From the IMG/VR virus record IMGVR_UViG_3300014168_000008, positions 1 through 40,789 of that record: a stretch of DNA of 40,789 bases; one strand, 5' to 3'. Of this stretch, positions 671 through 29,483 are shown piece after piece; within the stretch, counting starts at the first letter, position 1, and each line of letters opens with the position of its first letter. Origin of the DNA: a virus. Taxonomy: Duplodnaviria > Caudoviricetes. The notes under the pieces are model-generated. The model made no database searches and had not been told where the DNA came from. It saw only the letters and a program-made list of their open reading frames with translations. Position numbers and translations under genes: made by a program.

Positions 671-964
671 ATGAAGATTGATTTTGCGCAGTTATTCAAA
701 CAAGGATCAAACCTACTGGATGACCCGATGAATCTCGGCCCGCTCGATCGCGGTCACTACATTCAAGTCGGCATCGGCACAGGTTTCTATGTGCCAGAGG
801 ATGACTTCCAAACCCTGCAAGCACGCGCCAATGAAACACGCACGGTGCAATTCCTCGGAGTTACAAAAGCAGGCGCTCCGATCCTCGGAACACGCGAGGA
901 GATCCACGCAAACCCCGAATCCACTGGCCTGGTCGCATGGATCATGCCACGCCACGAGAACTAA
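671..964 (+). CDS. hypothetical early protein
   Basis: AAGGAG RBS upstream; starts 3 nt after the previous stop. Confidence 0.65.
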   Translation: MKIDFAQLFKQGSNLLDDPMNLGPLDRGHYIQVGIGTGFYVPEDDFQTLQARANETRTVQFLGVTKAGAPILGTREEIHANPESTGLVAWIMPRHEN

Positions 965-1014
965 CTCGGCATTTGCTTCAACCGCAACCATTAACCGAAA
1001 AAGGAGAATCGAAA

Positions 1015-1197
1015 ATGCTAACCCTCATCTTGAAACTTCGCGCCTTGGCTCTAGCTGACAATGGTCAGGATCTCGTCGAATACGCCCTCGTCATCGCTCT
1101 GATCGCATGCGGTGCAATCGCCAGCGTGGGCGCGCTCTCTACGCAAATCAACATGGCTTTTAACGTAATTTCGAGCGACCTGGCCACTGCTCTCTAA
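1015..1197 (+). CDS. flp: Flp/Fap family (Tad) pilin
   Basis: AAGGAG RBS; 60 aa with prepilin cleavage and Flp motif G|QDLVEYALVIALIA followed by a hydrophobic helix. Confidence 0.9.
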   Translation: MLTLILKLRALALADNGQDLVEYALVIALIACGAIASVGALSTQINMAFNVISSDLATAL

Positions 1198-1397
1198 TCG
1201 TGCTCGGGGATCTCTTCGAAAAGGCGCGGGTCGTAGAGATCCGCGTGTCCCTCAAAGTTGACGAAGCCATTCGAATCGATTTTACGAATCCGGAGCGGCT
1301 TCGCGCGCGACAGCGTGAACACCGGGCCAAGGTTTCGAAAGCGCAGGGGCTTGTCAATGAGCGCGATTGCACGGTTCGTCCGCTCCTCAATCTCCAC
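1194..1397 (-). CDS. hypothetical protein
   Basis: last gene of the leftward early operon; stop overlaps the flp stop. Confidence 0.55.
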   Translation of the reverse strand: MEIEERTNRAIALIDKPLRFRNLGPVFTLSRAKPLRIRKIDSNGFVNFEGHADLYDPRLFEEIPEHD

Positions 1398-1785
1398 GTT
1401 TCTTCCCTTTCTTTTTCAGCGCAGCGGCGGGAGGTTCAGGAGGAAGACTCAGATCCCTTTTCCCGCCGTTCGAATTTGCGCCGGGGGATTTCTTTTCGGG
1501 CAAAGCAGCGGTGTGACCTTCCGGTGAGCCCGCGCCGGCACTCCCGCCGTTCGAATTTTTGCCCGAAACCATGGCCAGGGCGCATTTGCCGCCCTTGAGA
1601 GCGTGCCGCGCGCGGCCTGGCTTCGAATCTACATACGCACCCTGGCAGGCGCTGCAATAGGCCACGGTGTCGCCGGATGCTTTGCTCCCTGGCTTCATGC
1701 CTTTGCTCGTCGGCAGCCAGCGCCGCGCCATCGCCAGGTTCGTCTGGTTTTTATGGTGCGTCCTGAATGCCTGCCAGTTCCTCAT
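1387..1785 (-). CDS. hypothetical basic protein with CxxC..H..C motif
   Basis: coupled ORF; contains a 17-bp direct repeat (1461-1477, 1542-1558) encoding NSNGG twice. Confidence 0.55.
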   Translation of the reverse strand: MRNWQAFRTHHKNQTNLAMARRWLPTSKGMKPGSKASGDTVAYCSACQGAYVDSKPGRARHALKGGKCALAMVSGKNSNGGSAGAGSPEGHTAALPEKKSPGANSNGGKRDLSLPPEPPAAALKKKGKKRGD

Positions 1786-2015
1786 TCAGCATCCTCTTTG
1801 GCGATGCGCGATCGCATCAAGCGCCACGCCTCTCGATAGATCCTGCCTCCGTATTGGCGGCTCTCTGAAAACATTTCCGATAGCAGAGCATCTCTCTCGT
1901 CGTTACTCAAAGGTTTCCCGATCCCCATGTAACGTAAACACAGTCTCGCGGCGATCCGCGGAATTAGCTCTCTGTTCCGCCCCCCCCTCATTGCGGCCTC
2001 GTCAGATCGCCCCAT
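1782..2015 (-). CDS. hypothetical protein
   Basis: coupled ORF in operon; start uncertain. Confidence 0.5.
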   Translation of the reverse strand: MGRSDEAAMRGGRNRELIPRIAARLCLRYMGIGKPLSNDERDALLSEMFSESRQYGGRIYREAWRLMRSRIAKEDAE

Positions 2016-2302
2016 TTATCGATCACTTCGTTAAAGACGCGCAGGCATTCTTCGCGGCCCTGGCGATCGCAGAATGAGATGAAGTCCTTCACCGCACTTT
2101 CTTGCGTTTTAGCTCTGCTCGACGGAAATTTCGAACCTGATCGCGTTTCCGTGAGTTCCCACGTATTGTACGGGCCCCGACAAATGAAAAACTGCCATTC
2201 GGGCAGCAATGGAATCGAAACCGGAAATCCCTTGCGTGTGTGCTTCGACGGAGATCCGCTGGGATCGCGAATCATATACTCCTGCTCGATTTGCTGGCTC
2301 AT
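1988..2302 (-). CDS. hypothetical protein
   Basis: ATGA overlap with upstream ORF. Confidence 0.6.
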   Translation of the reverse strand: MSQQIEQEYMIRDPSGSPSKHTRKGFPVSIPLLPEWQFFICRGPYNTWELTETRSGSKFPSSRAKTQESAVKDFISFCDRQGREECLRVFNEVIDKWGDLTRPQ

Positions 2303-2580
2303 CGATCCGGCCTCGCTATGAAGTGGTGTGTCTTGCCCTCGGTGCGCAGGTATCGCAATAGCCTGGCAATTGTGTCAGCCTCATGCGCCAGCATCTCTAT
2401 CGCGTCCTCTGGATCCAGTTTCGGATCCGTTGAAATCGCGATGTTGTGCGGCGAAAAGGCCAGGATCAACAGCGCACCTGGTCGGCTCTGCTGCTCGCCG
2501 CCCTGCGTCTTCCAGCGCAACCATTGCAGGCCGCTGGCCACATCCGCAGCGGTCACGAAGGGATTATCCTTGCGGCTCAT
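2299..2580 (-). CDS. hypothetical protein
   Basis: coupled ORF in operon. Confidence 0.6.
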   Translation of the reverse strand: MSRKDNPFVTAADVASGLQWLRWKTQGGEQQSRPGALLILAFSPHNIAISTDPKLDPEDAIEMLAHEADTIARLLRYLRTEGKTHHFIARPDR

Positions 2581-2735
2581 TGTTAGCCTTCGCGCACGTG
2601 GGGCAAATGTCGACCTTGAGCTTCGCCTCTGATCTCGCGGGTAGTGTGGATCGCACCGTCGACTGGCCCTTCGCGGGGATAGAAGTTCGCACAGTTCTCA
2701 CTGTCGCAGTGGAGCTGGATCCGCGTCACGATCAT
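2564..2735 (-). pseudogene. small Zn-finger-like gene, apparently frameshifted
   Basis: ORF 2735-2583 (MIVTRIQLHCDSENC...) is coupled to the ATPase stop; the matching DICPTC half lies in another frame ending at 2564. Confidence 0.4.
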
Positions 2736-4261
2736 TCGTTCACGCTTTCAACTTTGCCATCAGAAAGCACGATTCCCACTTTGCCGCTGGAGTCCACGCG
2801 CGCCATGAAGATTTGAAAGTTGTTCTCCTCGGCCATCGTTTCGATGAGTGCCAGGCTGTCGTCGTCGAGGCTCTCGCCATGCGCGATCGGTACCGCGCGC
2901 AGCTTCGGATTCGAGGCCATAGCCAGCGCCACTCCCACGCGGATCTGCTCCGCCTCGCCGAGCTGCAGAATCGGCACCTGGCGAAAGAAAACGCCTTGCT
3001 CGTCGAACGTCAAACCGTCGATCGGCATCTTCGCCGAAGCCAGGGCTGTTCGCTTCTTCTCTTCCCGATCGTCGATCGAGCGCGTGCGCGCTGTGGCGGC
3101 GCCATTGGTTTCGCGCAGCTCAGCCTCCAGCTTTTCGCGCTGCGTGCGCCGGGCAATTTCGCGGTTGATCCCTTGCGCGCGCTGTAACTCGACTAACATC
3201 GGCTGCGTGTCGACGAGCTCGCCTGCAGGCGCCTCTTCGAATGCCTGTTTAGCAATCGCCTCATTTGTGAGCAACGCCGTATGGATCCCCACCGCCGCCT
3301 CCAGCGTTTCTTTCGCTTTATCGAGATCTCGCGCCAGCCGCTCAGCCCTGGGTTCCAGGTCGGCCGCGTAATCAAAAAGCACGATCTGCGCACCGTGAAA
3401 GAGCGACAGATCGATCCCCGGCAGCGTTTCGGACATCGTCTTGACCAAGACTTCATAGCTGGCCGAATGACCCGCAGCAACAATCGCCAGCTCCTCGGCG
3501 ATCGGTACATCCCGCTCCAAGGTCGGAATCTTTTCGCGCTGCTCTTTGATGGTGGCCTCGTTATCGGCGATCGCCTTTGTCTGCGTCGCCAGAGCGTCAG
3601 CCAATGCGCGTTTGGTCCGGAAGATTCCCTCGAGGTTTTTGTTATGCTCGCCGGCCTTCTCGATCCGGCCGAGGATCTCCGCCTCGTCGATCGGCTCTTT
3701 AGGTAGGTTCGGCGAAAACGCGATCGCGTTCACTTGCGCCTCGAGCGCCTTCGCCTGCTTCTTCAGGTCGGTGCGCTCGGCATACTCTTTTTCGATCTGC
3801 CTATTTTCCTCATCAATGTCGATCTCCACTTTGACCAGGCCGCGCAGGATCTCGACCTGCGCTTTCGCATCGGCATGGATGAATGCGATCGGGTCAAAGC
3901 TCATCTGGCCAATGAGCATGTCGAGCACAGCCTGCGGCGTGCCCGCGATTGCCTCCGCCCCTGGCGCCGCTTCTACGGTTAAGTTGGTGGTCCGGTCGCT
4001 CGCAATGGTGCGCGTCGCAATCAAAAGCGGCTTGCCGTCGTCATCGCCCACAACTGCGCGCAGCCGGCTCTTGTCGGCACCGCGGCGCACAGGTTTTTCG
4101 GGAATGCCGCGCTTGCCGGCGAACAGCGCCCAGAGCGCGTCGAGCACGCTGGTCTTGCCTTGGCCGTTCTTCCCGGTGATGGTGGTGACGCGCTTCGTCG
4201 GCACGATCTCGACGATCCGGATCCGCTTGAAATTCTCGGCTGAAAACTGCAATATCCTCAT
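2732..4261 (-). CDS. SMC/Rad50-like ABC ATPase with long coiled coil
   Basis: N-terminal ENFKRI and Walker A GKNGQGKTS; central coiled coil; C-terminal degenerate signature (LGEAEQ) and Walker B/D-loop (IAHGESLDDD). Confidence 0.85.
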   Translation of the reverse strand: MRILQFSAENFKRIRIVEIVPTKRVTTITGKNGQGKTSVLDALWALFAGKRGIPEKPVRRGADKSRLRAVVGDDDGKPLLIATRTIASDRTTNLTVEAAPGAEAIAGTPQAVLDMLIGQMSFDPIAFIHADAKAQVEILRGLVKVEIDIDEENRQIEKEYAERTDLKKQAKALEAQVNAIAFSPNLPKEPIDEAEILGRIEKAGEHNKNLEGIFRTKRALADALATQTKAIADNEATIKEQREKIPTLERDVPIAEELAIVAAGHSASYEVLVKTMSETLPGIDLSLFHGAQIVLFDYAADLEPRAERLARDLDKAKETLEAAVGIHTALLTNEAIAKQAFEEAPAGELVDTQPMLVELQRAQGINREIARRTQREKLEAELRETNGAATARTRSIDDREEKKRTALASAKMPIDGLTFDEQGVFFRQVPILQLGEAEQIRVGVALAMASNPKLRAVPIAHGESLDDDSLALIETMAEENNFQIFMARVDSSGKVGIVLSDGKVESVNE

Positions 4262-4279
4262 GATTCCCCTTTTCTATTT

Positions 4280-4489
4280 TCAATCGGTTGGCGGAAAACT
4301 AGTCACGTCGACTCTCCCGCCAGTCACCACGGCGTTCATTAATTGTTCGAGTTGCTCGTTGAGCTTCGCTATCTGGTAGGCGGTTTCTGCTGCCATGAAA
4401 GCGCCAAAAACGTTAGGTTCGCAGTTTGCCCCGATCGCAGCATCGGGCATGATCTCATCCTTTAATTTTCGAATTTCCGCAGATGTCAT
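4280..4489 (-). CDS. hypothetical protein
   Basis: TAATG overlap with upstream ORF (start 4489; alternative 4495). Confidence 0.6.
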   Translation of the reverse strand: MTSAEIRKLKDEIMPDAAIGANCEPNVFGAFMAAETAYQIAKLNEQLEQLMNAVVTGGRVDVTSFPPTD

Positions 4490-4665
4490 TACCATCTACC
4501 CCACGCGATCGCGATGCAGGCCAGGAAGAAGCCGAGCACGACCCAGTTCGATTTGTGGATCCGCGCCCCGACCGCCACCACCTTGCGCGCGAAAGATTCC
4601 GCCGGCCGGGCGCCGGGCCGAAGTAACTTCACTAGAGCTTGATTGCGTTCCTGCTGTGACACCAT
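4489..4665 (-). CDS. small membrane protein (58 aa; absent from ORF track)
   Basis: GAGGGAGG RBS; MVSQQERNQ...WVVLGFFLACIAIAWGRW with C-terminal TM segment. Confidence 0.65.
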   Translation of the reverse strand: MVSQQERNQALVKLLRPGARPAESFARKVVAVGARIHKSNWVVLGFFLACIAIAWGRW

Positions 4666-4690
4666 GCGGCCTCCCTCGACTGCTTAAATC

Positions 4691-4720
4691 ACATTACGCG
4701 CAAAATGCCACTACGCGCAA
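4691..4720 (-). promoter_or_regulatory. putative promoter of the leftward early operon with overlapping direct repeats
   Basis: TTGCGC-N18-TAATGT on the - strand; TACGCGCAA at 4695-4703 and 4712-4720. Confidence 0.5.
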
Positions 4721-4725
4721 GTACC

Positions 4726-4760
4726 AAAAGTAAGCCCCGCCAGTTACGGCAGGGCTACTT
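4726..4760 (-). terminator. intrinsic terminator ending the late/lysis operon
   Basis: - strand AAGTAGCCCTGCC-GTAACT-GGCGGGGCTTACTTTT: GC-rich hairpin plus U tract. Confidence 0.65.
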
Positions 4761-4805
4761 GCTCTGGCGATTCTCCGCGACCTCCTTTCCTCTCCGTATC
4801 CGTTC

Positions 4806-5024
4806 TCAGTGAGATCCGACGGCATTGTGCGGGTCATGGTTCCCGGCCGGCTTTTTGCGGCCGGCGCCGGAACGCCTCGCACTCGAGAGAGCGGCCGCTA
4901 CAGCAATCTTGTCGGCCTTCTTTTTGCCAAACTTGGCCGCTGCTTTCTGGTAACGCGGGCCGGTGTGAAACTCGCGGATATTCTCGCTAACGGTCGCCCG
5001 GCTCTTTCCCGGCTTCATCGGCAT
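4806..5024 (-). CDS. small Lys/Ala-rich basic protein (putative DNA-binding core protein)
   Basis: GGAGGG RBS; MPMKPGKSRATVSENIREF...AVAAALSSAR resembles small basic phage late proteins; ends GNHDPHNAVGSH. Confidence 0.75.
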   Translation of the reverse strand: MPMKPGKSRATVSENIREFHTGPRYQKAAAKFGKKKADKIAVAAALSSARRSGAGRKKPAGNHDPHNAVGSH

Positions 5025-5086
5025 GGCAAACCCTCCGCAAATCGTCCACGGAAGGCGATGGCTGCCCCTCCATGGCACTTCTGGCC

Positions 5087-5575
5087 CTAGATGGTCCCGG
5101 CCGCCCACGCACCGTAGGCTAGGTGCAATTTGACCGTGTAGGCGGGATCCGGGGCGATGTGGCCGAGGTTCCACACTTCGCCGATATCAGCCAGGGTGAC
5201 GGCATGCCGTGCCCCGATCACGTAGCTGTTGAAGAAGTCGACGAATTCCTGGGCGCAGACGGTGAGCTGCGTTTCCAGTACTCCCGGATCCTCGGTCGTG
5301 AAATTGTCGAACATCATCTGCCACGGTCCATAGCTGCAGGCGGCCGCTCGTCCGAATTGCTGCAGTAGCAGCCGCTGGCCTTTGCCGCCGGCGAGAGATC
5401 CGCCCACATCGTACGCGGGCTCGTGGCGCGGACCGCAATTCAATCCGAGGCTCGATTCGTTCGACGCGATCGCCGCCATCACTCCGCGGCCGTCGAGCTG
5501 GGCGGTCGGGTCCAGTTTCAGGCTCGGCCCGTTTTCGTTGCACGCGATCAATACATCTGCTTTTGCAAAGTTCAT
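5087..5575 (-). CDS. endolysin, lysozyme-like/lytic transglycosylase fold
   Basis: AIASNESS (catalytic Glu), SYGPWQMM, WNLG motifs; in the same block as the holin-like gene. Confidence 0.75.
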   Translation of the reverse strand: MNFAKADVLIACNENGPSLKLDPTAQLDGRGVMAAIASNESSLGLNCGPRHEPAYDVGGSLAGGKGQRLLLQQFGRAAACSYGPWQMMFDNFTTEDPGVLETQLTVCAQEFVDFFNSYVIGARHAVTLADIGEVWNLGHIAPDPAYTVKLHLAYGAWAAGTI

Positions 5576-5964
5576 GCTATCGGCGCAACGGGCGCGTAGA
5601 GCCCTGGATTGTAGCCCGTCTGGGCTCGCGTGTAAGCTGCCGTGCCGTTCTCTGCCGCTGTGAGGTACGCATCGATCGCGCTCAGCGTGGCAGCGGGTAG
5701 GCCCGGCGTCTGTTTCATGGCGGTCAGGACGCCGATCGCGGTGCTATAGAAAATCGGCATTTCCTGTAGGGTCGAATTTCCGGAGCCAATCGACTGCAAA
5801 AGCGGATTCGTCGCCGTCTCGAGGCTCGCCACAAGAGGCTCGAATGGCGCTCCGAGACCGGACGCAAGGAGCGCAACGTTGCCCGCCAGCTCAATCGCCG
5901 GCAGGATACCTTTCAGCTTTGTCCAGAAAGTCGTGGGCGCGGTAGTTAGGGGTGCTGTGCTCAT
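5572..5964 (-). CDS. lysis-module protein, amphipathic/hydrophobic N-terminus
   Basis: coupled between lipoprotein and endolysin. Confidence 0.65.
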   Translation of the reverse strand: MSTAPLTTAPTTFWTKLKGILPAIELAGNVALLASGLGAPFEPLVASLETATNPLLQSIGSGNSTLQEMPIFYSTAIGVLTAMKQTPGLPAATLSAIDAYLTAAENGTAAYTRAQTGYNPGLYAPVAPIA

Positions 5965-6323
5965 TGGCTCACCGCCGGGGTGGGAAGTGCTGCCTGCTTG
6001 GTCCGCACGGTATTCACTGCCGCCTGCGCCGCCGCCTGCGTCGCTGTCCCGGCGTGATAGGCCAGGTAAACCGACTGCGCCGCGTTCAGGCTCACGCCGA
6101 AGTCGTTGAAGGCTGCTTTCTGGGCCGGTGTTAGCGTCAGTTGCCCGCTCGCCGATTGCTGCTGGATCGAGCTGTAGAAGGAGTGAGCTCCGGCCAGGAT
6201 CTCCCCCATCTGCTGATCGGCTGAGTTCGAGTAGCCCGGCGCCAGTCCTTGCGGCGGGGTTGAGCTGGGCGTGCAGGCCGTCAGCATCAGGCAGAGGGCC
6301 AGTGTTGCGAGTGACCGTTTCAT
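5961..6323 (-). CDS. lipoprotein (spanin-like candidate)
   Basis: MKRSLATLALCLMLTA|C lipobox; helical Ala/Gln-rich body; in lysis cassette. Confidence 0.7.
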   Translation of the reverse strand: MKRSLATLALCLMLTACTPSSTPPQGLAPGYSNSADQQMGEILAGAHSFYSSIQQQSASGQLTLTPAQKAAFNDFGVSLNAAQSVYLAYHAGTATQAAAQAAVNTVRTKQAALPTPAVSQ

Positions 6324-6578
6324 CTAAGTTCCTTTCGCCGGTCCTACCGGCTGCAGAGGGAGGGGCGTTTCCGGCGTCGTCATCACCTTGGAGTCAGGAA
6401 GTTCTTTCTTGGTCGTGGACTGGAAAAGCTGTACCGCTGCGCCGATCACCCCGGCTGCGATCCCGGCGTCCAGTCCGGATTTATGGAAGACGATCGTCGC
6501 AACGATCCCGGTCAAAAGCATGAAGAACGCCCATACTTGCGAGTTGATCGAGTTGAGGGATTCGATGAAACTCTTCAT
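6324..6578 (-). CDS. putative holin (2 TM segments)
   Basis: VWAFFMLLTGIVATIVF and AGIAAGVIGAAVQLF followed by a charged C-terminal tail; upstream of the endolysin. Confidence 0.65.
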   Translation of the reverse strand: MKSFIESLNSINSQVWAFFMLLTGIVATIVFHKSGLDAGIAAGVIGAAVQLFQSTTKKELPDSKVMTTPETPLPLQPVGPAKGT

Positions 6579-6844
6579 TGATGCGCCGCCTTCCGGACTG
6601 TTGCGAGCACTTGGCCGACGGTCTTCCAGGCATCGGCCTCTTCTTCGTCGATCGCCGCGCCGGCCGGCAGCAGTTCTTCCTCGATCTTCATCACGATCTC
6701 AATGCGGTCGAGCGAATCCATGCCGAGATCTTCCTCGAGGGCCGCGTCGGGCGTGAACTGCGCTTCATCGAACAGCAACACGCTGGCCAGGATCTCTTTG
6801 GTCCGCTGCTCGAGCTGGATGTTATTCGTGGTGACCAATCGCAT
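6575..6844 (-). CDS. acpP: acyl carrier protein
   Basis: acidic 89-aa protein with LEEDLGMDSLDRIEIVMKIEEE phosphopantetheine motif and C-terminal TVGQV helix. Confidence 0.92.
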   Translation of the reverse strand: MRLVTTNNIQLEQRTKEILASVLLFDEAQFTPDAALEEDLGMDSLDRIEIVMKIEEELLPAGAAIDEEEADAWKTVGQVLATVRKAAHQ

Positions 6845-7046
6845 TGTGTGGCTCGTGATTCCCGTTTTTGTGCTTCCGTTTTTGCGCGATGTGCTTCATG
6901 TTTTCGGCGGATACCGCTTCCTTTTTGCGCACGCCGCCCTGTTTTTTTGCGGCCGCGATCTTCTTCGGCGTCGCCTTTCCAAACTTGCCTTCAGTGCCTT
7001 TGGCTTTCATGCGCGCGGCGGCTTTCTGAATGAAATGCTCAGCCAT
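6822..7046 (-). CDS. small Lys/Ala-rich basic protein
   Basis: TGATG coupling; MAEHFIQKAAARMKAKGTEGKF...; ends GNHEPHNAIGHHE. Confidence 0.75.
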   Translation of the reverse strand: MAEHFIQKAAARMKAKGTEGKFGKATPKKIAAAKKQGGVRKKEAVSAENMKHIAQKRKHKNGNHEPHNAIGHHE

Positions 7047-7516
7047 CACAGATCTCCAGTGCCCCAAAGGTCGGGCTGGGTGCCAGGTAGAAAGGTGCTC
7101 GTCGCGAAGAAATCCGCGGCATCGCGGAGAGGAGTGTTCGCACCCGTATAGACCGCCTGGGCATTGGTCAGGGAAGCTCCGGTGAGAGTTCCACTTTGCA
7201 GCAATGGACCATTGGTTATCCCTGCGCTCCATGCGCCTGAAGTCAGGTTGAGGCAAAGCGTCACCGTCGGCGCACCGGGAAGCACCGTAAAGGCCGTATC
7301 TAACCCGCCCGACACCGTCGCTGTGCCGAAGCTGTAGGTGATGCAGGCATTGTTCGCAAGGAAATCGAAGGTCTTCGATGTAGCGGTCGCGCTCGTCGCC
7401 GCGGTCGTCGAGATCCCCGTCGGCCCGGTTACCTGGTATGGATTGGTGAGGAGAATGTGGGCATGCGCAAGCGCCGGTGCGAACCAGAGCAGCGCCAGCA
7501 TCAATCTGATTTTCAT
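7046..7516 (-). CDS. secreted Thr/Ala-rich beta protein in the fibre module
   Basis: signal peptide MKIRLMLALLWFAPALAHA|H; 2 Cys in the mature part. Confidence 0.75.
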   Translation of the reverse strand: MKIRLMLALLWFAPALAHAHILLTNPYQVTGPTGISTTAATSATATSKTFDFLANNACITYSFGTATVSGGLDTAFTVLPGAPTVTLCLNLTSGAWSAGITNGPLLQSGTLTGASLTNAQAVYTGANTPLRDAADFFATSTFLPGTQPDLWGTGDL

Positions 7517-7932
7517 AAATCCGCTTTCTCCCATGCCGTGGGGTCGAGGATTTTTACCATCTGGCCGAAGATGAATGCCGCGATCACCTGCGGCATCTGA
7601 TGCGCTCTATCGAGGATCAGGCCCACCTCGGTTTCAGAAACGACACAGCTTTTGCACCCCTGGAGCTTCTGCGCCAGCTTCGCCCGCGCTACTTCGTGGC
7701 TCTGCGATTCGCCATTATCCGAAGGCAACCCCACGATCAAAGCTACCGCTACCTCGTCACCGAGGGTCACTTGCTTCTGCGTCTTCACATCGGCGGTGTC
7801 CATCAGCGGCTGCTTGCCGTCCATCCCCTTCAGGGTCACGCTGAAATCGAGCGTTCGGTCCTTGGGCTTCTCCTGAGCAAGTGCCGGAATTGCCATTGCC
7901 AGTAGCGAGACAAATATCAATGCAATTTTCAT
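7513..7932 (-). CDS. putative tail-fibre chaperone/assembly protein with signal peptide
   Basis: MKIALIFVSLLAMAIPALA|Q; LDFSVTLKGMDGK..TLG..R.KLA.K..E..LI pattern recalls small proteins downstream of fibres; directly after the fibre gene. Confidence 0.65.
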   Translation of the reverse strand: MKIALIFVSLLAMAIPALAQEKPKDRTLDFSVTLKGMDGKQPLMDTADVKTQKQVTLGDEVAVALIVGLPSDNGESQSHEVARAKLAQKLQGCKSCVVSETEVGLILDRAHQMPQVIAAFIFGQMVKILDPTAWEKADL

Positions 7933-7946
7933 TCGATTCCCCTTTT

Positions 7947-9641
7947 TCAGTAGTACGGAATATAGTGCGTCGTTCCTGCCACGTTGACCACGATGCAGGC
8001 GGTGGGAGTCGTCCCGCAATTAGATGCCACCGCTGTCGTGCTTCCATAGCCAATCTGCGACGCCGCGACGGTTGGTGCTGCTGCGGTAGTTACAAAGTTA
8101 CCAGCCGCGAATTCTGCTGTTGCTCCCGCAACGGTGTTTGTGCATGTTCCAGACGACTCAGCTCCCATCACCCCGGCTGATCCGAGGCGGCATAGACTGG
8201 AATCGCTGTTCCAAGCGACTTTCGCCGTGGTTGAAAGGCTCACCCCGTTTCCATTGAATGTGCCCCCGGAGCTGAGACTCCACCCCGGAGAAGTTAGTCC
8301 ACCGGTACTAGCGAATACAAATGCCGACGTGCCGTTCGTGCCCAACCAAAGGAGATTCCCAGCAAAAGCATTGGGGGCGTTTATTTCTTCCATCGTCCCA
8401 CTGGAAGATCGGATGGGATTGGTCGCTCCATTCGTATCAATAGCCAGCACCGGATAGTAAAGTGAGGTTGTCGTCGGCGTGCCGCTGAACAGCGTACCGG
8501 GTGCCGATCCGGTCGGCGAGTTAGAGAACGTGTTCAAACCGCTCAGCGTATTGGCTCCGCTCAGAGTTAGATTCTGGGCAAGCGTATTGCTCACCGACAT
8601 TGTGCCGGAAGACCACTGCGAAATGCCTGTCGAAGCGGAGTTATTCGCGCCCGTCCCGCCGTAAGTCGGGCTGAGGATTGCTCCCTGCCATGTGCCGGTA
8701 CCGATGGTGCCGACCGTGGTCAAGCTCGAAGTCACCACAGTTGACGCAAGGGTAGTGCCGGTCAGATTGGCCGCTGGAACCGCGTTTGCCGTGCAAGCGG
8801 CGCAAGTGCCTGTGAGGTTGCTGATGACGCCCGAAGCGGGCGTGCCAAGAGCGGGAGCGGTGAAGGTCGGGTTCGTGAGCGTCAGCCCTGCAATGCTCGT
8901 TGTCGTTGATCCAGCCCCAATTGAAGTCGAACCGATGGTGATCGGAAAGCCCGACGAAGGCAACGCGCCCAAATCCTGTAACGTCCAGGTTGTGCCGGTT
9001 TCGAGGAATCCCGCGACATGCCCGCTGGTTGGCGGAGTAGCTGAAGGGAAAAGCGCCAGGAAATTGTCCGCACCGTTCGCCCAGATGTGCCAATTGTGAT
9101 TGGTCGAATCGTGACCGATTTCGCCCGATGCAGCCGCCGCGTATCCCGCAACCACGGGTAGCTTGAATTGAGGCATTCCGCTGAAGTCGGCGATGCTGGT
9201 CCCGCTGCCGAGGACCGTGAAATTTGTATTGACAGGTTGCGTGATGGTCTGCGCGCCCGCTGGAGAGGGCACGATAGGCGTCGTGGCGGCGATGAGCTGG
9301 TTTGAGCTGTTGGTCGCGACGTAAAGCGCAGACGTAGGAACTGCGGCTCCGTTGATTTTAGCTACCGTCGGATTCGGGTAACTACCGGACAGATCCCCGC
9401 CTGCTGGACCGCTGGGAGGGCCGCCTGCGCTGGCGCCGAATTCAGTCCAAGTATTCACTGGCCCGCAAATATAGGGCGTGCCATTGATGCCGATGACATC
9501 GTTCACCGCGCAGGTCGCCGGCAGCGTGGCTGCGCCGTGGAAACGATAGGCCGACTGGCTCGATATCCCGCCCCCTGGTCCCTGCGCATGCGCGACGGCC
9601 GCGATCGCGAACAGCACGAGAGCTGCGATCTTCGGCCTCAT
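7947..9641 (-). CDS. tail fibre/receptor-binding protein with signal peptide
   Basis: start ATG9641 (TGATG coupling); MRPKIAALVLFAIAAVAHA|Q; fibre-type motifs AGGDLSGSYPNPTV, LGTPASG, TVGTIGTGTWQG..YGGTG and C-terminal NVAGTTHYIPYY. Confidence 0.8.
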   Translation of the reverse strand: MRPKIAALVLFAIAAVAHAQGPGGGISSQSAYRFHGAATLPATCAVNDVIGINGTPYICGPVNTWTEFGASAGGPPSGPAGGDLSGSYPNPTVAKINGAAVPTSALYVATNSSNQLIAATTPIVPSPAGAQTITQPVNTNFTVLGSGTSIADFSGMPQFKLPVVAGYAAAASGEIGHDSTNHNWHIWANGADNFLALFPSATPPTSGHVAGFLETGTTWTLQDLGALPSSGFPITIGSTSIGAGSTTTSIAGLTLTNPTFTAPALGTPASGVISNLTGTCAACTANAVPAANLTGTTLASTVVTSSLTTVGTIGTGTWQGAILSPTYGGTGANNSASTGISQWSSGTMSVSNTLAQNLTLSGANTLSGLNTFSNSPTGSAPGTLFSGTPTTTSLYYPVLAIDTNGATNPIRSSSGTMEEINAPNAFAGNLLWLGTNGTSAFVFASTGGLTSPGWSLSSGGTFNGNGVSLSTTAKVAWNSDSSLCRLGSAGVMGAESSGTCTNTVAGATAEFAAGNFVTTAAAPTVAASQIGYGSTTAVASNCGTTPTACIVVNVAGTTHYIPYY

Positions 9642-9991
9642 CAGCTCACCTCGACATTGACGATCGCGCCATTGGCGCTCGCCTGTATATAGCCTTTTGC
9701 GATTGTCGCTGCGGCTATCGACCAGGTGGGCGAAAGCGGCTTGGCGAGACTTGATCCGGCGTCGATCACCAATCCCGGCCCCGTCGCCGTGATATTGGCG
9801 TCGCCGTAGTAAATCGAAGTCCCACCATTCGATGGATCGCTCTGCACGATCAGCGAACTCGCGGGCGCAGCGGGCACGAGGGGAGTCGTCGGGCTGAGAG
9901 TAACTCCGAGAATCGTTCCACCCTGAAACAGTGTCCAAAGGTTGAACGGCCCCTTGGTGATGTCCGTGATCGTCGCTTTAAGGCTGGCCAA
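9641..9991 (-). CDS. small beta-rich virion protein
   Basis: GAGG RBS, TTG start; no signal peptide; IVQSDPSN..IYYGD motif. Confidence 0.7.
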   Translation of the reverse strand: MASLKATITDITKGPFNLWTLFQGGTILGVTLSPTTPLVPAAPASSLIVQSDPSNGGTSIYYGDANITATGPGLVIDAGSSLAKPLSPTWSIAAATIAKGYIQASANGAIVNVEVS

Positions 9992-10017
9992 AGTGCGCCT
10001 CGCTTTCGCATTTCATC

Positions 10018-10266
10018 CTACTGTGCCCGGAGTGAGTTAATCAATTCTCTTTTTGCCGTCTCGCCAAGCTTCAGCCTGTCACACAGCGCCTGAATGATCT
10101 TGCCCTGGATCACGTTCTGCTGCCTCTCCCAGATCAAGTCAGCAGCCATCAACCGCAGCGCTTCAATGTCCTGCATGCGCTCGCCAAGGAAACAACTGCT
10201 GGCTTCGGCCGCCGCTTGGAGGAGTGCGGGCTGGCGGCCCCGCATCGGCCGGGGTGCGCAGGCCAT
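10018..10266 (-). CDS. hypothetical protein
   Basis: fills the gap between two late genes; start uncertain. Confidence 0.45.
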   Translation of the reverse strand: MACAPRPMRGRQPALLQAAAEASSCFLGERMQDIEALRLMAADLIWERQQNVIQGKIIQALCDRLKLGETAKRELINSLRAQ

Positions 10267-10270
10267 TTCT

Positions 10271-10972
10271 CTAGTTGATGACCGATCCGGTCAGGTTTAC
10301 AGGCGTTGGCGGTGTGGGTACCGAAGGAGCTGCCGCCACAACCACTGATTCTGTGTTGCTCGGCGCGCTCTGAGCTCCCGCCGCATCCACTGAAACGACG
10401 TAGTATTCGTAGGTCGTAGAGGCGGCGATGGTGTTGTCGGTGTAGGAAGTCTGGGTAACTGGCAACGCGGTGGGCGTGATCTGCGTCGGTACGGCCCCGC
10501 CCTGGATTCCTCTGAACACCAGAAAACCGGTTGCGGCCGGTGGCGCTGGGTTTGCCGCGGTCGCTGGCGTCGAGGCTCCGGCTGTCCAAGTGAGCGCCAC
10601 ACCGCATGCTGGATTGGGATCGGTAGCACAGAACTTCGTCGGTGTGATCGGCGGGGTGGGTGGCGGCGTGACACCGCCCACGGTCACGGGCGCTGATTGT
10701 GCCGAAGTGCCTGATGCATTGACTGCAGCAACTGTGTACGACGCTCCGGCTACCGGGTTCGTGACCAGCCATCCGACGTTAGGGTCGTTCCCAAGCAGGG
10801 TGCCGTTGCTGTAGACGTTGTAGCTGGTCGCGCCAGGAGAGGCGTTCCACGTGAACGCGACCATCGTGCCGTCTTGGACTACCGCTGAGGCTCCTGTAGG
10901 AACAGGCGGCGCCTGCGCATGAGCCACGAGCCCGGCCAGTGCGAGAAGTGCGGATGCGAAAAATTGTTTCAT
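10271..10972 (-). CDS. secreted tandem fibronectin type III domain protein
   Basis: AAAGGA RBS; MKQFFASALLALAGLVAHA|Q; two FN3 repeats (TWNASPGATSYNVY..YTVAAVN; LTW..YTD..YEYYVVSVD..S.PSN). Confidence 0.85.
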   Translation of the reverse strand: MKQFFASALLALAGLVAHAQAPPVPTGASAVVQDGTMVAFTWNASPGATSYNVYSNGTLLGNDPNVGWLVTNPVAGASYTVAAVNASGTSAQSAPVTVGGVTPPPTPPITPTKFCATDPNPACGVALTWTAGASTPATAANPAPPAATGFLVFRGIQGGAVPTQITPTALPVTQTSYTDNTIAASTTYEYYVVSVDAAGAQSAPSNTESVVVAAAPSVPTPPTPVNLTGSVIN

Positions 10973-10987
10973 GATTTTCCTTTCTCT

Positions 10988-12019
10988 TTAGGGTACCGAG
11001 CCGACCCATGCGCTTCCGTTCCAATGGCAAAGCACAAAATCCGAACCGCCGCCCGTCGAGCAATCTGTCGTCGTCGCGCCATCGGAGACAAAGGCGACAG
11101 CCTGGAAGGGCGCGGGATTCGGAAGCTGGGCAACAGGATAAACATAAAGCAAATTCGGCCATCCTGCGGAAATGCCCAGCGCGTTCGTCTGTGGATTGTA
11201 GGCCAATGGCGGCTGGATCAGCAGGCTGGTCGTCGCCGGCGGGGCTGCGCCGGTGTAATGGACTTCGAGGCCGATGAGCGCAATCGCCAGCGCACCGCCG
11301 CCGTTGCAGCATCGGTTCGCGACCAGGCTCACCGCTGAATAATTTGTGGGCAGGCCGGTGAAGGGAGCAGTAACTTCGACCAACTGGTAAGGGTTGAGTC
11401 CGGGCCCGGATAGGTCGTGAGGTGCGGCGAAATAAGTTCCGCTCCCCACGCCGCCGCCGCCGGCGTTGGCGATGCCAAAGTCTTCCTGGCTGGCGCTCAC
11501 CATGTTCGATTGAGAGATCGCGAACTCGTAGATCGATGTCACGTTCGCCGCGAGGATGTAGGAAGGAAGGGTGTAGTTATTCCAGTTGATCGCCGAGTTC
11601 CCGCCGCCGAGCAGGTTCCCTGAATTCGCAGTACAGCTCGTGGCAGAGCTGCCGGCTGTCACCACGCAGGCCTGCGCAAACACGAGCGCGTATTGTCCCG
11701 ATCCGGCGGGGGTGTACTGCATCTGAATCGTCGAACCGTTGGGTCCGCAATTCGGGCAATCGATGGTGATGTTTCCCGTCGCCGGCACCGAAAACTGGCC
11801 GTTTACCCGGATCGGCGCTGTGCCTTGGGCGTTTCCCACGCCGGCGCCGGTTCCATTCGGCACGCATTGATTCGTGGGGATGTTATAGACCGTCGACCCT
11901 GCCGCGCAGTTCGGCCACTTGATGTTCGTGTTCGGGTTGAGTTGCGCGTGCGCGCTCGCCGCGCCGCAAGCTATTAATAGGCCGAGCAATCCGAGTTTAA
12001 GTGACAATGCACTGCGCAT
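10988..12019 (-). CDS. secreted Cys-rich fibre/appendage protein
   Basis: start ATG12019; MRSALSLKLGLLGLLIACGAASAHA|Q (also possible lipobox LIA|C); C-terminal YPVAQLP..AFVSD..GGG..WNG..W module typical of phage fibres. Confidence 0.75.
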   Translation of the reverse strand: MRSALSLKLGLLGLLIACGAASAHAQLNPNTNIKWPNCAAGSTVYNIPTNQCVPNGTGAGVGNAQGTAPIRVNGQFSVPATGNITIDCPNCGPNGSTIQMQYTPAGSGQYALVFAQACVVTAGSSATSCTANSGNLLGGGNSAINWNNYTLPSYILAANVTSIYEFAISQSNMVSASQEDFGIANAGGGGVGSGTYFAAPHDLSGPGLNPYQLVEVTAPFTGLPTNYSAVSLVANRCCNGGGALAIALIGLEVHYTGAAPPATTSLLIQPPLAYNPQTNALGISAGWPNLLYVYPVAQLPNPAPFQAVAFVSDGATTTDCSTGGGSDFVLCHWNGSAWVGSVP

Positions 12020-12605
12020 CGACGCGATCTCCCGCTTCCGTGGTGATGTTGAGAGTGATTGTAGAATCTCCGCTCTGCGTGTAGCTAACGAAGGGCAGAG
12101 AGAGTCCCGGCCGGAGCTGCGCGCCGTTGTAGAAAACCCCGCCCGGCACGATAACGCCAGGCGCGGTGTAGACCGAGCCCGGCACGGCGCCGCTGCAGGC
12201 GGCGAGCTCGAGGTGCGGAATGCCTGGCGGGTTCGGTGGGTTGAATGGAATGGCGCCCGATAGGTCGTAGGTGCCGGCCGAGAATTGATAGAGCTGCGTC
12301 TGGACGACATTCTTGTTGGTGTCGAGAACGGAGATCGCGTAGTAAGTGTCGCCAGTTACTTCGCCAGCGGTGATCTGGTCGTTTCCCCATAGGTCGATCG
12401 TGCCTGGCGTGCCGAAGTAGGGAATGTCGACGAACCAGCTTGAAACTTCGCCGATGATGCCGGCGCCGATGACGCGGGGAAGGTTCGATCCGTAGTTACA
12501 AAGCGCAATACGCAGCCACGCCGGATTGGTTGCACTTCCGAGCTCATTCCCCTGGAAGTCGACGAGCGTAAAAGTCAGCGTTACATCGGGCGTCGGCGCG
12601 GGCAT
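11997..12605 (-). CDS. tail-fibre adaptor-like virion protein
   Basis: AGGAG RBS; beta-rich; no signal peptide; first gene of the fibre module. Confidence 0.7.
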   Translation of the reverse strand: MPAPTPDVTLTFTLVDFQGNELGSATNPAWLRIALCNYGSNLPRVIGAGIIGEVSSWFVDIPYFGTPGTIDLWGNDQITAGEVTGDTYYAISVLDTNKNVVQTQLYQFSAGTYDLSGAIPFNPPNPPGIPHLELAACSGAVPGSVYTAPGVIVPGGVFYNGAQLRPGLSLPFVSYTQSGDSTITLNITTEAGDRVDAQCIVT

Positions 12606-28244: not shown

Positions 28245-29483
28245 TTAGGTGGTCTGCGGCACGGCTTTCGCAATGCGCGCGCGGCTCACGTTGTCGGGGC
28301 TCGGCCCAATGCCGAGGATGGTGTTATAGGCCGTGCCGGCGGCAATCACGCCGGGCGGGTCATAGCTCGATCGCGCGAACTCGCCAGCCCACAGGTCCAT
28401 GTTCTCCCACTTCGGATGCGGGTCGGTGTGCTTGGCGCTCGGCAGGTTGATGAACACCATTGCATCCTCGCCGGCGCAGTAGGTCGAGATGGCGGTAAGT
28501 CCCGATCCCTGCCAGTTAGCCGTGGTCGTCTGGTTGGTCGAACGCAGCCAACGTGTGCCGGCGAGCTCGAGTACTTTGATTTCGCCATCGTCGTCGTCGT
28601 CCATCAGCTCCTCGAGTTTGAGCTGGCCCTCGGGGGTGTGCTTCAGGATGTCGACAACCGAATTGTTGGTGTTGTCGAGCGCGAACACATCGCCGACAAA
28701 GAAGGGATGGATCGAGCCGTAGAAATAGCCGGTCTGCATCGGCGCCACATTCTGGCCGAAGAGCGAGGGCGGCATCTGCTCGATGATCTGCTTGGTGAAG
28801 GCATAGAGCGGCCCCACGGTTGAATCCTGGTTCGATGTGTTGGTGTCCAGGGTGCGCAGATAGTCGAGGTTGATCATGATCAGCGTGTCAATCGTCTGTG
28901 CCAGCCGATAGGCCATCATGCGGCGATAGTTCATCAAGTCATCCGAGATGGATGTCATGAAGGTCAAATCGCTGAAGTTTGTATAGTCGGCCCACTGGCC
29001 CATCACGATATCGCGGAAGTTGCAGACGATGGTGATCGGGTTACCGATTGTGCCCTGTGTCTGTTGCGTCAGGTTCGGACCGATCGGCGGGGTAAGCATG
29101 AAGTTACGGAAAGTCAGACCGCTCTTTTCCGGCATCGTCATGCGCGTGCATAGTTGCAATTTATTCAGCTTCTTCGCGAGAAACTTCATAAACGCTTTGT
29201 TGTAGTGCACGGTTAGCCCAGCCTGCGGCATGTTGCCGGTCTGCATTGCGGCCGGCGACGCGCCGTCGCCACAGACCGCGCCGGTGGCGTAAGCCGCTGC
29301 CTCGCGCAGCGACATAGCCGAGGCGGTGTAGCTGGCCATTCCCAGCACCAACAGCACCCAGCCCACGGCCAGAGTCAAGCGCACGCCTGGAAGCAGAATC
29401 CCGCGTACCAGCGCGCACGCTGCCACATTCACGCTATTCAAATCGAGCGTGCGTGGCCCTTTCATTCTTTGAGTATGTTTCAC
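28245..29483 (-). CDS. major capsid protein (N4-gp56-like) with hydrophobic N-terminal leader
   Basis: MPEKSG, TQG, GQWADY.NFSD, LAQTID, GSIHP motifs; follows portal and scaffold; GGGAG RBS and GTG start. Confidence 0.85.
   Translation of the reverse strand: MKHTQRMKGPRTLDLNSVNVAACALVRGILLPGVRLTLAVGWVLLVLGMASYTASAMSLREAAAYATGAVCGDGASPAAMQTGNMPQAGLTVHYNKAFMKFLAKKLNKLQLCTRMTMPEKSGLTFRNFMLTPPIGPNLTQQTQGTIGNPITIVCNFRDIVMGQWADYTNFSDLTFMTSISDDLMNYRRMMAYRLAQTIDTLIMINLDYLRTLDTNTSNQDSTVGPLYAFTKQIIEQMPPSLFGQNVAPMQTGYFYGSIHPFFVGDVFALDNTNNSVVDILKHTPEGQLKLEELMDDDDDGEIKVLELAGTRWLRSTNQTTTANWQGSGLTAISTYCAGEDAMVFINLPSAKHTDPHPKWENMDLWAGEFARSSYDPPGVIAAGTAYNTILGIGPSPDNVSRARIAKAVPQTT

Follow-up and report, generated by a model that had tools for sequence, protein, structure and literature searches.

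The usual assumption is that a tailed phage completes its particles in the reducing cytoplasm, before the cell lyses. The window studied here, a 40,789-nucleotide stretch of phage DNA analyzed in full, raises the question of where a set of late, fiber-position proteins folds, as five of their genes open with Sec-type leaders. The phage has terminase, portal-like and capsid genes and is short-tailed and podovirus-like, of the terminase/portal dsDNA type; its host is probably a member of the Acidobacteriota. Table 1 gives the features discussed; the roles of the lysis genes listed there are likely ones, assigned from sequence features and position, and searches with these genes gave no informative family match.

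Table 1. Features of the exported module and its context in the window
Feature	Position	Strand	Remarks
Likely lysis genes, context	5087..6578	-	holin-like 84 aa, lipoprotein 120 aa, amphipathic 130 aa, lysin-like 162 aa
156-aa protein, predicted exported	7046..7516	-	2 Cys; starts with AHA↓H leader
139-aa protein, predicted exported; putative fiber partner/chaperone	7513..7932	-	large phage family, 3434 clusters
564-aa mosaic fiber-like protein, predicted exported	7947..9641	-	8 Cys in four local pairs: 44/59, 280/283, 484/500, 542/549
116-aa leaderless Cys-free protein, candidate second anchor	9641..9991	-	stop overlaps start of 564-aa gene
Small leaderless ORF	10018..10266	-	variable slot inside module; probable start is residue 31
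233-aa protein, predicted exported, two FN3-like domains	10271..10972	-	2 Cys; decoration- or adhesin-like
343-aa fiber/spike-like protein, predicted exported	10988..12019	-	10 mature Cys; overlaps 3' end of anchor gene
NPxxxIxW motif, candidate docking element	11915..11938	-	N-terminal part of mature 343-aa protein; followed by C38/C52 pair
Sec-type leader of 343-aa protein	11945..12019	-	25 codons, ending AHA↓Q; heuristic call
202-aa leaderless fiber anchor	11997..12605	-	N-terminal 'WGND' beta-domain ~1-120; C-terminal 'type A' beta-domain ~124-202
Major capsid protein, hydrophobic N-terminal extension, context	29256..29483	-	start approximate

Leader calls and translation starts

Sec leaders direct translocation, AxA sites are cleaved by SPase I, DsbA oxidizes the exported protein, and a Gln at position +1 can become pyroglutamate. 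Leaders were called with a custom n/h/c-region heuristic that looks for a basic n-region, a hydrophobic h-region and an AxA-type site. By this heuristic all five proteins have a tripartite leader, an AxA-type site and a real start codon. The genes starting at 12019, 10972 and 9641 have AHA↓Q, with 10, 2 and 8 mature cysteines and one further cysteine inside the first of the three leaders. The gene starting at 7932 has ALA↓Q and that at 7516 AHA↓H, each with two mature cysteines, and three homologs of the latter keep AHA↓HILL. The original prediction had named these starts and cysteine counts, as well as the leaderless proteins at 11997-12605 and 9641-9991, and all were confirmed on re-reading the sequence.

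An SD-like word precedes each of the five starts. Downstream, up to residue 60, no further in-frame start with an SD word of four letters or longer occurs in any of these genes. Mis-called starts, which had been named as a possible flaw, were rejected because good leaderless alternatives were not found and the leaders are conserved. The heuristic was positive for 6 of the 58 called minus-strand genes in the window, namely the five module genes and the lipoprotein at 5961-6323. It called 0.45-1.7% of 2000 shuffles per protein, and 4 of 187 upstream genes of at least 200 aa in 35 contigs. Three of these four are genes for exported, Cys-rich proteins in L046, a distant contig, and the fourth is the capsid leader of the window. 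On the strength of these two controls, chance hydrophobic N-termini were rejected. The count of Gln at +1 (47 of 65) is partly circular, since the heuristic rewards that residue. The leader of the 343-aa protein also contains a lipobox-like LIAC at residues 15-18; a lipoprotein reading was rejected because most relatives' leaders lack it. No hydrophobic C-terminal anchor is visible in the five sequences. Taken together, the five leader-bearing proteins are very probably exported.

Conservation of leaders and cysteines

The first long gene after the leaderless anchor has a leader in 32 of 34 related contigs (31 by the heuristic, L024 by eye), as expected if leaders are conserved across related phages; this count leaves out second contig copies (L003, L026, L034, L039, L040, L041 and L045) and contigs that end before the fiber (L004/L019, L005 and L022). 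With leaders on 32 of 34, these first fiber-slot genes depart from the usual tail fiber, which is leaderless and folds and assembles in the cytoplasm. Mature cysteines are even in number in 31 of 33 first fiber-slot proteins (binomial p = 7e-8), a set that includes seven hand-set cleavage sites and two near-identical pairs, drops L017 (a near-copy of L007), L038 and L046, and adds L047 and L048. The 564-aa protein was compared with 119 homologs: the 37 with a leader have a median of 1.30 cysteines per 100 aa, and the 82 without one have 0.16; among those that contain cysteine, the number is even in 28 of 31 leader-bearing versus 22 of 51 leaderless homologs. For five cysteine pairs, both partners are present in 33 of 33 homologous segments, in a test that was seeded with Cys-containing sequences and favors Cys-containing matches. 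Even, locally paired and co-conserved cysteines are characteristic of Dsb-type substrates, and an oxidase pair is found in candidate host genomes. DsbA-like thioredoxins occur in all four Acidobacteriota genomes that hold related contigs, VKOR in three and glutaminyl cyclase in two.

Leaderless counterparts serve as natural controls. The fiber of L016 has no leader and 3 cysteines in 796 aa, the anchor domain is fused to leaderless fibers with 2-3 cysteines in L046 and L050, and gp15 of the cultured phage Tunturi_3 is leaderless with a single cysteine. We rejected L046 as a clean export-free control because exported, Cys-rich genes lie upstream there. The leader is kept as a type while the fibers share almost no other sequence, and cysteine enrichment is seen only with the leader. 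Comparison lends strong support to the proposed export and oxidative folding, as leaders persist despite divergence and track both cysteine richness and even parity, and leaderless, Cys-poor counterparts exist as well. In contrast to the leaderless anchor, the leader-bearing fibers, with their paired cysteines, likely fold outside the cytoplasm.

Anchor and fiber-slot protein

The anchor is leaderless in 34 of 35 contigs, and anchors themselves carry 1-5 cysteines. Its AF2 model (pLDDT 82) has two all-beta domains. Foldseek gave no PDB match at E<=0.001 and two matches at that threshold among viral models, namely an unnamed protein and a phage protein of the pectate-lyase family, the latter with a low TM-score; tblastn against 50,697 annotated phage records gave no match. 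In Tunturi_3, gp15, whose annotation reads 'tail fiber protein', begins with an anchor domain: its N-terminus aligns with the N-domain (hhalign probability 93%, E 2.6e-7). It follows that the fiber is divided between a cytoplasmic anchor and a body predicted to be exported: the attachment-like domain is at the expected tail-module position, encoded by a leaderless gene of its own. The L093 fibers have an exported N-domain too, but its homology to the anchor domain was rejected (hhalign probability 0.2%).

Tunturi_3 (PP885686), a cultured Tunturiibacter podovirus (PMC11924767), has homologs of the window's terminase, portal, capsid (33%), tail and ejection-type genes, and their order is similar. 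It differs in its 98-kb genome, the fusion of anchor domain to fiber, leaderless gp1-gp31, Cys-poor fibers and a leaderless capsid protein.

The exported fiber gene overlaps or abuts the anchor gene in most contigs. NPxxxIxW is present in 23 of 23 fibers behind type-A anchors versus 0 of 11 behind other anchors, with C-domain types assigned by eye; all five independent pairs are concordant for C-domain type and motif, which falls short of significance (p = 0.0625). Since anchor type and motif lie side by side on the DNA, their joint transfer could by itself account for the co-variation. In L007, L011, L023 and L030 NPxxxIxW is tandemly repeated and so may belong to a repeating shaft instead of being a docking peptide. 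The originally proposed docking on an adaptor in the cytoplasm gains real but indirect support from the adaptor's homology to the fiber N-terminus of a cultured podovirus and its co-variation with the first residues of the fiber.

The 343-aa slot is occupied in relatives by leader-bearing proteins of 320-1360 aa, and 6 of 30 of these exported proteins have pectate-lyase-like, K1-lyase, LamG or GDSL matches. The window protein has no Pfam match and only two database homologs of similar length. A check for a trimeric or beta-helix fold yielded the tailspike-type domains of those six relatives and Atlas leads below 0.9 only.

Other proteins of the module

The 564-aa protein resembles a leader-bearing L088 protein (57% over 335 aa) and a protein of the PRD1-like L092 (76% over 109 aa); tblastn against the 50,697 phage records gave no match. 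The fiber character ascribed to it for its 'ordinary fiber motifs' is read from its position and from short matches to proteins with chaperone-of-endosialidase or collar domains; Pfam gave no match. The preceding 116-aa protein is kept at 93% in L002, where the next gene retains its leader and N-terminus and swaps its body; it has a homolog in L025 and a weak match to Tunturi_3 gp30, a 'virion structural protein'.

The idea that all five exported proteins are fibers does not hold: the 233-aa protein is FN3-like, and the 156-aa protein may be an accessory part. PHROG matches of the 233-aa protein are to tail proteins (E 6.5e-8 to 1.8e-4), and its homolog in L092 (59% over 119 aa) has Pfam fn3. 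Homologs of the 156-aa protein (62-79% identical) all have a leader and two cysteines and lie behind exported fibers in L088, L092/L089 and L093. A homolog search with the small ORF gave no match, and L002 has other small ORFs at that place.

The 139-aa protein had been called a probable chaperone with a signal peptide. The signal peptide is there; the label is unsupported, as the confident model (pLDDT 95) has no Foldseek match in the PDB (E<=0.001), and searches of Pfam, PHROG and PDB sequences gave no match, to a described chaperone or otherwise. There was likewise no tblastn match in the 50,697 phage records. Its position behind fiber genes is consistent with a partner role. Among the best 150 of the 3434 clusters in its family, 98 have a leader, 30 are leaderless and 22 are unclear; leader-bearing copies lie beside exported proteins in all six loci seen (L012, L032, L043, L084, L086 and L088).

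Proposed route and alternatives

Sequence and comparison establish that the fiber is split, that its outer parts have leaders and a cysteine pairing pattern, and that the anchor is homologous to a fiber N-terminus. The explanation we consider probable is a split fiber whose body is exported and clipped on at lysis. The outer parts, which bear the leaders, would leave the cytoplasm, be cleaved and acquire their disulfides in the host periplasm, where the fiber bodies would fold and probably trimerize, with the 139-aa partner co-exported. Meanwhile the anchor N-domain would bind the tail in the cytoplasm, as a fused fiber N-terminus would. After holin action, filled particles would meet the periplasmic pool, and the 343-aa protein would dock through NPxxxIxW on the anchor C-domain. 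That at least this protein ends on virions by such a route is fairly probable. More weakly, a second anchor for the 564-aa protein may be provided by the 116-aa protein, while accessory decoration may be the part played by the FN3-like protein and the 156-aa protein. Docking would need to be fast, between holin action and release. In T4, preassembled long fibers attach after head-tail joining (PMC3185693).

The exported proteins might instead stay off the virion and work in the periplasm, on the cell surface or in the surroundings of the infected cell, as proteins that mask receptors or act as decoys, as adhesins, or as glycan-degrading enzymes that free progeny; we consider this unlikely. Bacteria do export phage-fiber-like adhesins with signal peptides: the MAT fibers of Bdellovibrio bacteriovorus are phage-fiber-like mosaic trimers in which a signal peptide precedes a conserved N-terminal domain (PMC10769870) of ~130 aa. 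Some relatives' cassette members are glycosidase- or Ig-like (alpha-galactosidase in L020), and the virion types between which the cassette moves are unrelated. Relatives of the exported proteins occur again in a PRD1-like phage, a siphovirus-like phage and one head module, where searches did not show the anchor domain beside them, so a virion-independent role also fits. However, several contigs, among them L006, L007, L021, L024 and L027, show no long fiber-like gene besides the exported one in the 10 kb that follow the anchor, so that within that span the anchor would otherwise have nothing to carry; the gene's overlap with the anchor gene and the co-variation of its N-terminus with the anchor C-domain argue the same way. 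MAT fibers, moreover, are chromosomal, are shown on the predator cell and often have an S74 chaperone domain, whereas the window proteins are encoded by phage late-operon genes, are tied to a leaderless anchor and have no S74 match in Pfam.

A second alternative, which we hold to be quite improbable, is that the whole particle matures at the inner membrane, with the capsid leader tethering assembly and particles crossing or budding to gain exported parts before lysis. The hydrophobic capsid leader is found in 29 of 30 relatives (25 scripted, four by eye) and is absent in Tunturi_3, whose fibers are leaderless, and related exported proteins occur in the membrane-containing PRD1-like phage. But the capsid leader is missing from L079, which is the same contig as L035 and yet has exported fibers, membrane-crossing machinery was not recognized, and holin-like and lysin-like genes are present.

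Very improbable is that the leaders act as uncleaved anchors, folding delays or host relics while the fibers fold in the cytoplasm and their cysteines air-oxidize after lysis, a course proposed for other virions with disulfide links: disulfides can form spontaneously in virions (PMC13576161) and leaderless anchors also carry cysteines, but tripartite AxA leaders persist on otherwise dissimilar fibers, cysteine enrichment accompanies only the leader, and established Sec biology exports such leaders by default.

Comparison with known systems

In the literature, mostly open-access main texts, we found no report of exported fibers in tailed phages. The split-fiber route is described for no tailed phage that we found; its component parts are of known kinds. 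Disulfides are reported in structural proteins of tailed virions, in Agrobacterium phage Milano (PMC10811340) and in the gp39 tail tube of a siphovirus (PMC13576161). Those bonds lie in core tail parts, not exported fibers, and neither main text contains 'signal peptide' or 'periplasm'. The receptor-binding virion protein pIII of Ff carries a signal sequence of type I, depends on SecYEG and folds in the periplasm with DsbA-made S-S bridges (PMC4823517). It differs in being membrane-anchored and added during non-lytic extrusion of an ssDNA filament; the window proteins, which have neither the C-terminal membrane anchor nor the filamentous ssDNA virion of inovirus pIII, appear to be soluble exported parts with a separate cytoplasmic anchor, in a dsDNA podovirus-like phage.

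A broader reading, to which we give somewhat less than an even chance, is that many lytic phages infecting Acidobacteria and further soil bacteria, with podovirus, siphovirus, myovirus or PRD1-like bodies, build their core in the cytoplasm and their host-recognition gear in the periplasm, joining the two at lysis by a plug-and-socket pair. It would combine a possible capsid-leader membrane tether, the Sec, Dsb and glutaminyl cyclase functions, and a swappable pair of anchor C-domain and NPxxxIxW. If true, with the last assembly step taking place beyond the inner membrane, the lytic cycle would gain a stage; host Sec, Dsb, glutaminyl cyclase and lysis timing would become determinants of infectivity and host range; and a possible failure of cell-free or cytoplasmic expression of such fibers would be explained. 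The family offers a small candidate docking pair and, in Tunturi_3, L016 and L050, leaderless natural controls.

Tunturi_5 (PP885688), a cultured Tunturiibacter jumbo myovirus, has six adjacent leader genes, gp337-gp342, four of which are annotated as fiber or virion proteins and have 18, 6, 14 and 12 mature cysteines. It differs in its unrelated virion type, with no clear homology to the window proteins and a computational fiber annotation, and the main text of its paper does not mention signal peptides, fibers or mass spectrometry. As a cultured phage with the same trait, it makes the central claim testable.

Conserved signal peptides in the fibre slot

Leader-bearing proteins in the fibre slot are a real, conserved and unexpected feature. 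The window sequence carries the five Sec-type signal peptides (leaders) of the original prediction, with exactly the mature cysteine counts that it gave (10, 2, 8, 2 and 2, in the order of the table). A heuristic written for this analysis (basic n-region, hydrophobic h-region, AxA-type site) was positive in 6 of the 58 window genes, namely these five and one lipoprotein, in 0.45-1.7% of shuffled sequences, and in 4 of 187 upstream genes of related contigs, none of them a tail or ejection gene. An SD-like word precedes each of the five starts, and a check for mis-called starts, a concern raised at the outset, found no good leaderless alternative ahead of residue 60 in these genes.

Scans that used the 202-aa anchor protein and a conserved neighbouring gene as queries collected 34 other contigs. 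The anchor homolog is leaderless in 34 of the 35 contigs, and a gene of at least 250 aa was found after it in 34; the first such gene is leader-bearing in 32 of these 34 (31 by the heuristic, one by eye), so the leaders proved to be conserved across related phages. In the other two contigs, L016 and L046, this gene is leaderless and encodes 3 and 2 cysteines. The first long exported proteins span 320-1360 aa and have little in common past their first residues, with just two pairs exceeding 50% identity over half their length; the mature cysteine count is even in 31 of 33 (seven cleavage sites hand-set). Across the 65 leader-bearing genes 3' of the anchor, 51 counts are even, 11 are odd and 3 genes lack cysteines. 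Of 119 database homologs of the 564-aa protein, those with a leader have eight times the cysteine density of those without, and counts are even in 28 of 31 leader-bearing versus 22 of 51 leaderless homologs. Five cysteine pairs keep both partners in 33 of 33 homologous segments, a figure biased by search seeds that contained those cysteines.

A split fibre and its anchor

The anchor model has two beta-domains. Its N-domain resembles the N-terminus of gp15, an annotated tail fibre of the cultured podovirus Tunturi_3, and heads leaderless, cysteine-poor fibres in contigs L046 and L050; none of Tunturi_3 gp1-gp31 bears a leader. Judged from these homologies, other phages fuse the anchor domain to the fibre, and the window's family splits it off, the remainder bearing a leader. 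Pectate-lyase-like, K1-lyase, LamG or GDSL family matches occur in the exported proteins of 6 of 30 relatives; the 343- and 564-aa window proteins have no Pfam family match. Mostly through short matches, PF13884 (chaperone of endosialidase in one source) is found in seven 564-aa homologs and PF07484, presumably tail collar, in one.

By-eye assignment gave the anchor C-terminal end as a repeated small beta-domain (type A) in 23 contigs and as something else in 11. The motif NPxxxIxW or a close variant stands at the fibre start behind 23 of 23 type-A anchors versus 0 of 11 others, and anchor type and motif switch together in all five independent pairs starred on the anchor N-domain tree (p 0.0625; five pairs cannot reach p<0.05). 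The two traits sit side by side on the DNA, and four fibres repeat the motif in tandem, so this co-variation is only suggestive of docking. In four contigs (L007, L009, L011, L030) the anchor is followed, ahead of the fibre, by an extra stand-alone copy of its C-terminal domain, and six others (L006, L013, L027, L028, L031, L032) encode a single protein with at least two copies. Several relatives have a GroES-like ORF, recognized by eye, close to the anchor gene (table); it is absent at the corresponding place in the window.

Features of the window and of compared contigs
Feature	Locus	Coordinates	Strand	Remark
Anchor, 202 aa	window	11997-12605	-	leaderless
343-aa protein	window	10988-12019	-	leader
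233-aa protein	window	10271-10972	-	leader
564-aa protein	window	7947-9641	-	leader
139-aa protein	window	7513-7932	-	leader
156-aa protein	window	7046-7516	-	leader
Major capsid protein extension	window	29256-29483	-	N-terminal; basic, then hydrophobic
DNA methyltransferase	window	27087-28208	-	about six repeats of a short peptide; inserted immediately after capsid gene
Acyl carrier protein	window	6575-6844	-	Pfam PP-binding, E 2e-10; between exported cassette and lysis-like genes
Lys-rich ORF	window	6822-7046	-	small, very basic
Lys-rich ORF	window	4806-5024	-	small, very basic; C-terminus like that of the preceding
Flp/Fap pilin-like ORF	window	937-1197	+	opposite strand; PF04964, E 1.7e-5, below cut-off
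Extra anchor C-terminal domain	L007	12114-12365		
GroES-like ORF	L004	10642-11382		
GroES-like ORF	L005	11177-11656		
GroES-like ORF	L047	8919-9200		
Spike-like genes, leaders and paired Cys	L092 (contig of L089)	756-11328		20-kb PRD1-like phage; segments in common with 564-, 233- and 156-aa proteins
Two exported fibres (12 and 16 Cys) and 156-aa homolog	L093	4534-10423		between tail-assembly and tape-measure genes
Leader-bearing genes with 139-aa homolog	L084	2283-5324		within head module

Spread of the cassette

The original prediction treated all five proteins as a fibre module; the 233-aa protein is FN3-like. The 139-aa family comprises 3434 clusters, and among the best 150 of these, 98 are leader-bearing, 30 begin at the domain itself and 22 are ambiguous. 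Since its nearest Atlas clusters (93-100% viral) are unnamed and its confident predicted model has no PDB match, a chaperone role is a guess. Leader-bearing homologs of the 156-aa protein (62-79% identical) also follow exported fibres elsewhere, in L088, in the 20-kb contig L092, whose capsid protein is of the PRD1 P3 type (Pfam E 3e-31), and in L093, which has Phage_capsid and tape-measure matches and a siphovirus-like gene order. From these placements, cassette parts move among unrelated virion types, which broadens the phenomenon yet leaves room for the exported proteins to serve non-virion roles, an explanation that we consider unlikely.

Proposed route and alternatives

Sec export, cleavage and oxidation form an established pathway for leader-bearing proteins, and export of those described here is very probable. 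The anchor would attach to the tail inside the cytoplasm, the fibres would mature in the periplasm, and anchor-bearing particles and fibres would meet once the inner membrane gives way; in T4, too, the long fibres are preassembled and attached last (PMC3185693). We regard this full route as reasonably probable and commit to it as an unproven mechanism; the split fibre, leaders, cysteine pattern and anchor homology are shown by the sequences and their comparison. Maturation of the whole particle at the membrane is improbable, and cytoplasmic folding with cysteines oxidised by air is very improbable.

The original prediction knew of no such pathway, and the open-access literature searched yielded no account of exported fibres in a tailed phage. 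A term search of PMC3556154, 10.1101/2025.10.08.681156, PMC5723332, PMC3517404, PMC13716836 and PMC4936722 gave nothing relevant. Ff pIII is exported and periplasm-folded, though as part of a non-lytic filament (PMC4823517); Bdellovibrio MATs are fibre-like exported adhesins, but of a cell (PMC10769870); and Milano and a siphovirus tail tube have disulfides, with export undescribed (PMC10811340, PMC13576161), spontaneous oxidation or host DsbA being proposed for the latter (PMC13576161). In the cultured jumbo myovirus Tunturi_5, 6 of 16 genes examined (gp337-gp342) have leaders, and four of these, with 18, 6, 14 and 12 mature cysteines, are annotated as fibres or virion proteins; 'signal peptide', 'fibre' and 'mass spectrometry' do not occur in the main text of its paper.

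Host and genome setting

The anchor domain is encoded on four bacterial genome contigs, all binned in Acidobacteriota MAGs. As three are phage-sized (the exception, L050, is distantly related and lies within a 282-kb contig), they are a pointer to, not proof of, an Acidobacteriota host. The four genomes encode DsbA-like thioredoxins (4/4), VKOR (3/4) and glutaminyl cyclase (2/4). Gln occupies +1 in 47 of the 65 leader-bearing genes, a preference partly built into the heuristic, and recalls the Bacteroidetes Q-rule, whereby SPase I products are modified by a periplasm-facing cyclase (PMC5837995, where Acidobacteria go unmentioned).

The window is an entire linear IMG/VR record (40,789 bases) with a completeness rating of 41%; it may be closer to complete, since of 30 related records about half fall in the 38-43 kb range too. 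Its podovirus-like late operon, on the minus strand, runs from terminase, portal-like and capsid genes to tail/ejection-type genes, the latter assigned by homology and gene order against Tunturiibacter phage Tunturi_3, the sole annotated-phage match of the capsid protein (33%). The capsid extension, 55-90 aa long, recurs in 29 of the 30 relatives L051-L080 (25 scripted, 4 by eye), is absent from L079 and Tunturi_3, and is possibly a removable membrane tether. The acyl carrier protein has homologs near the corresponding slot in L002, L012, L018, L020 and L042; it may be tied to the handling of lipids or lipoproteins during lysis. The pilin-like ORF possibly acts in pilus interference or superinfection exclusion. 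The Lys-rich ORFs may encode DNA-condensing or internal proteins; homologs of the one at 6822 occur in seven or more related contigs, and their position varies.
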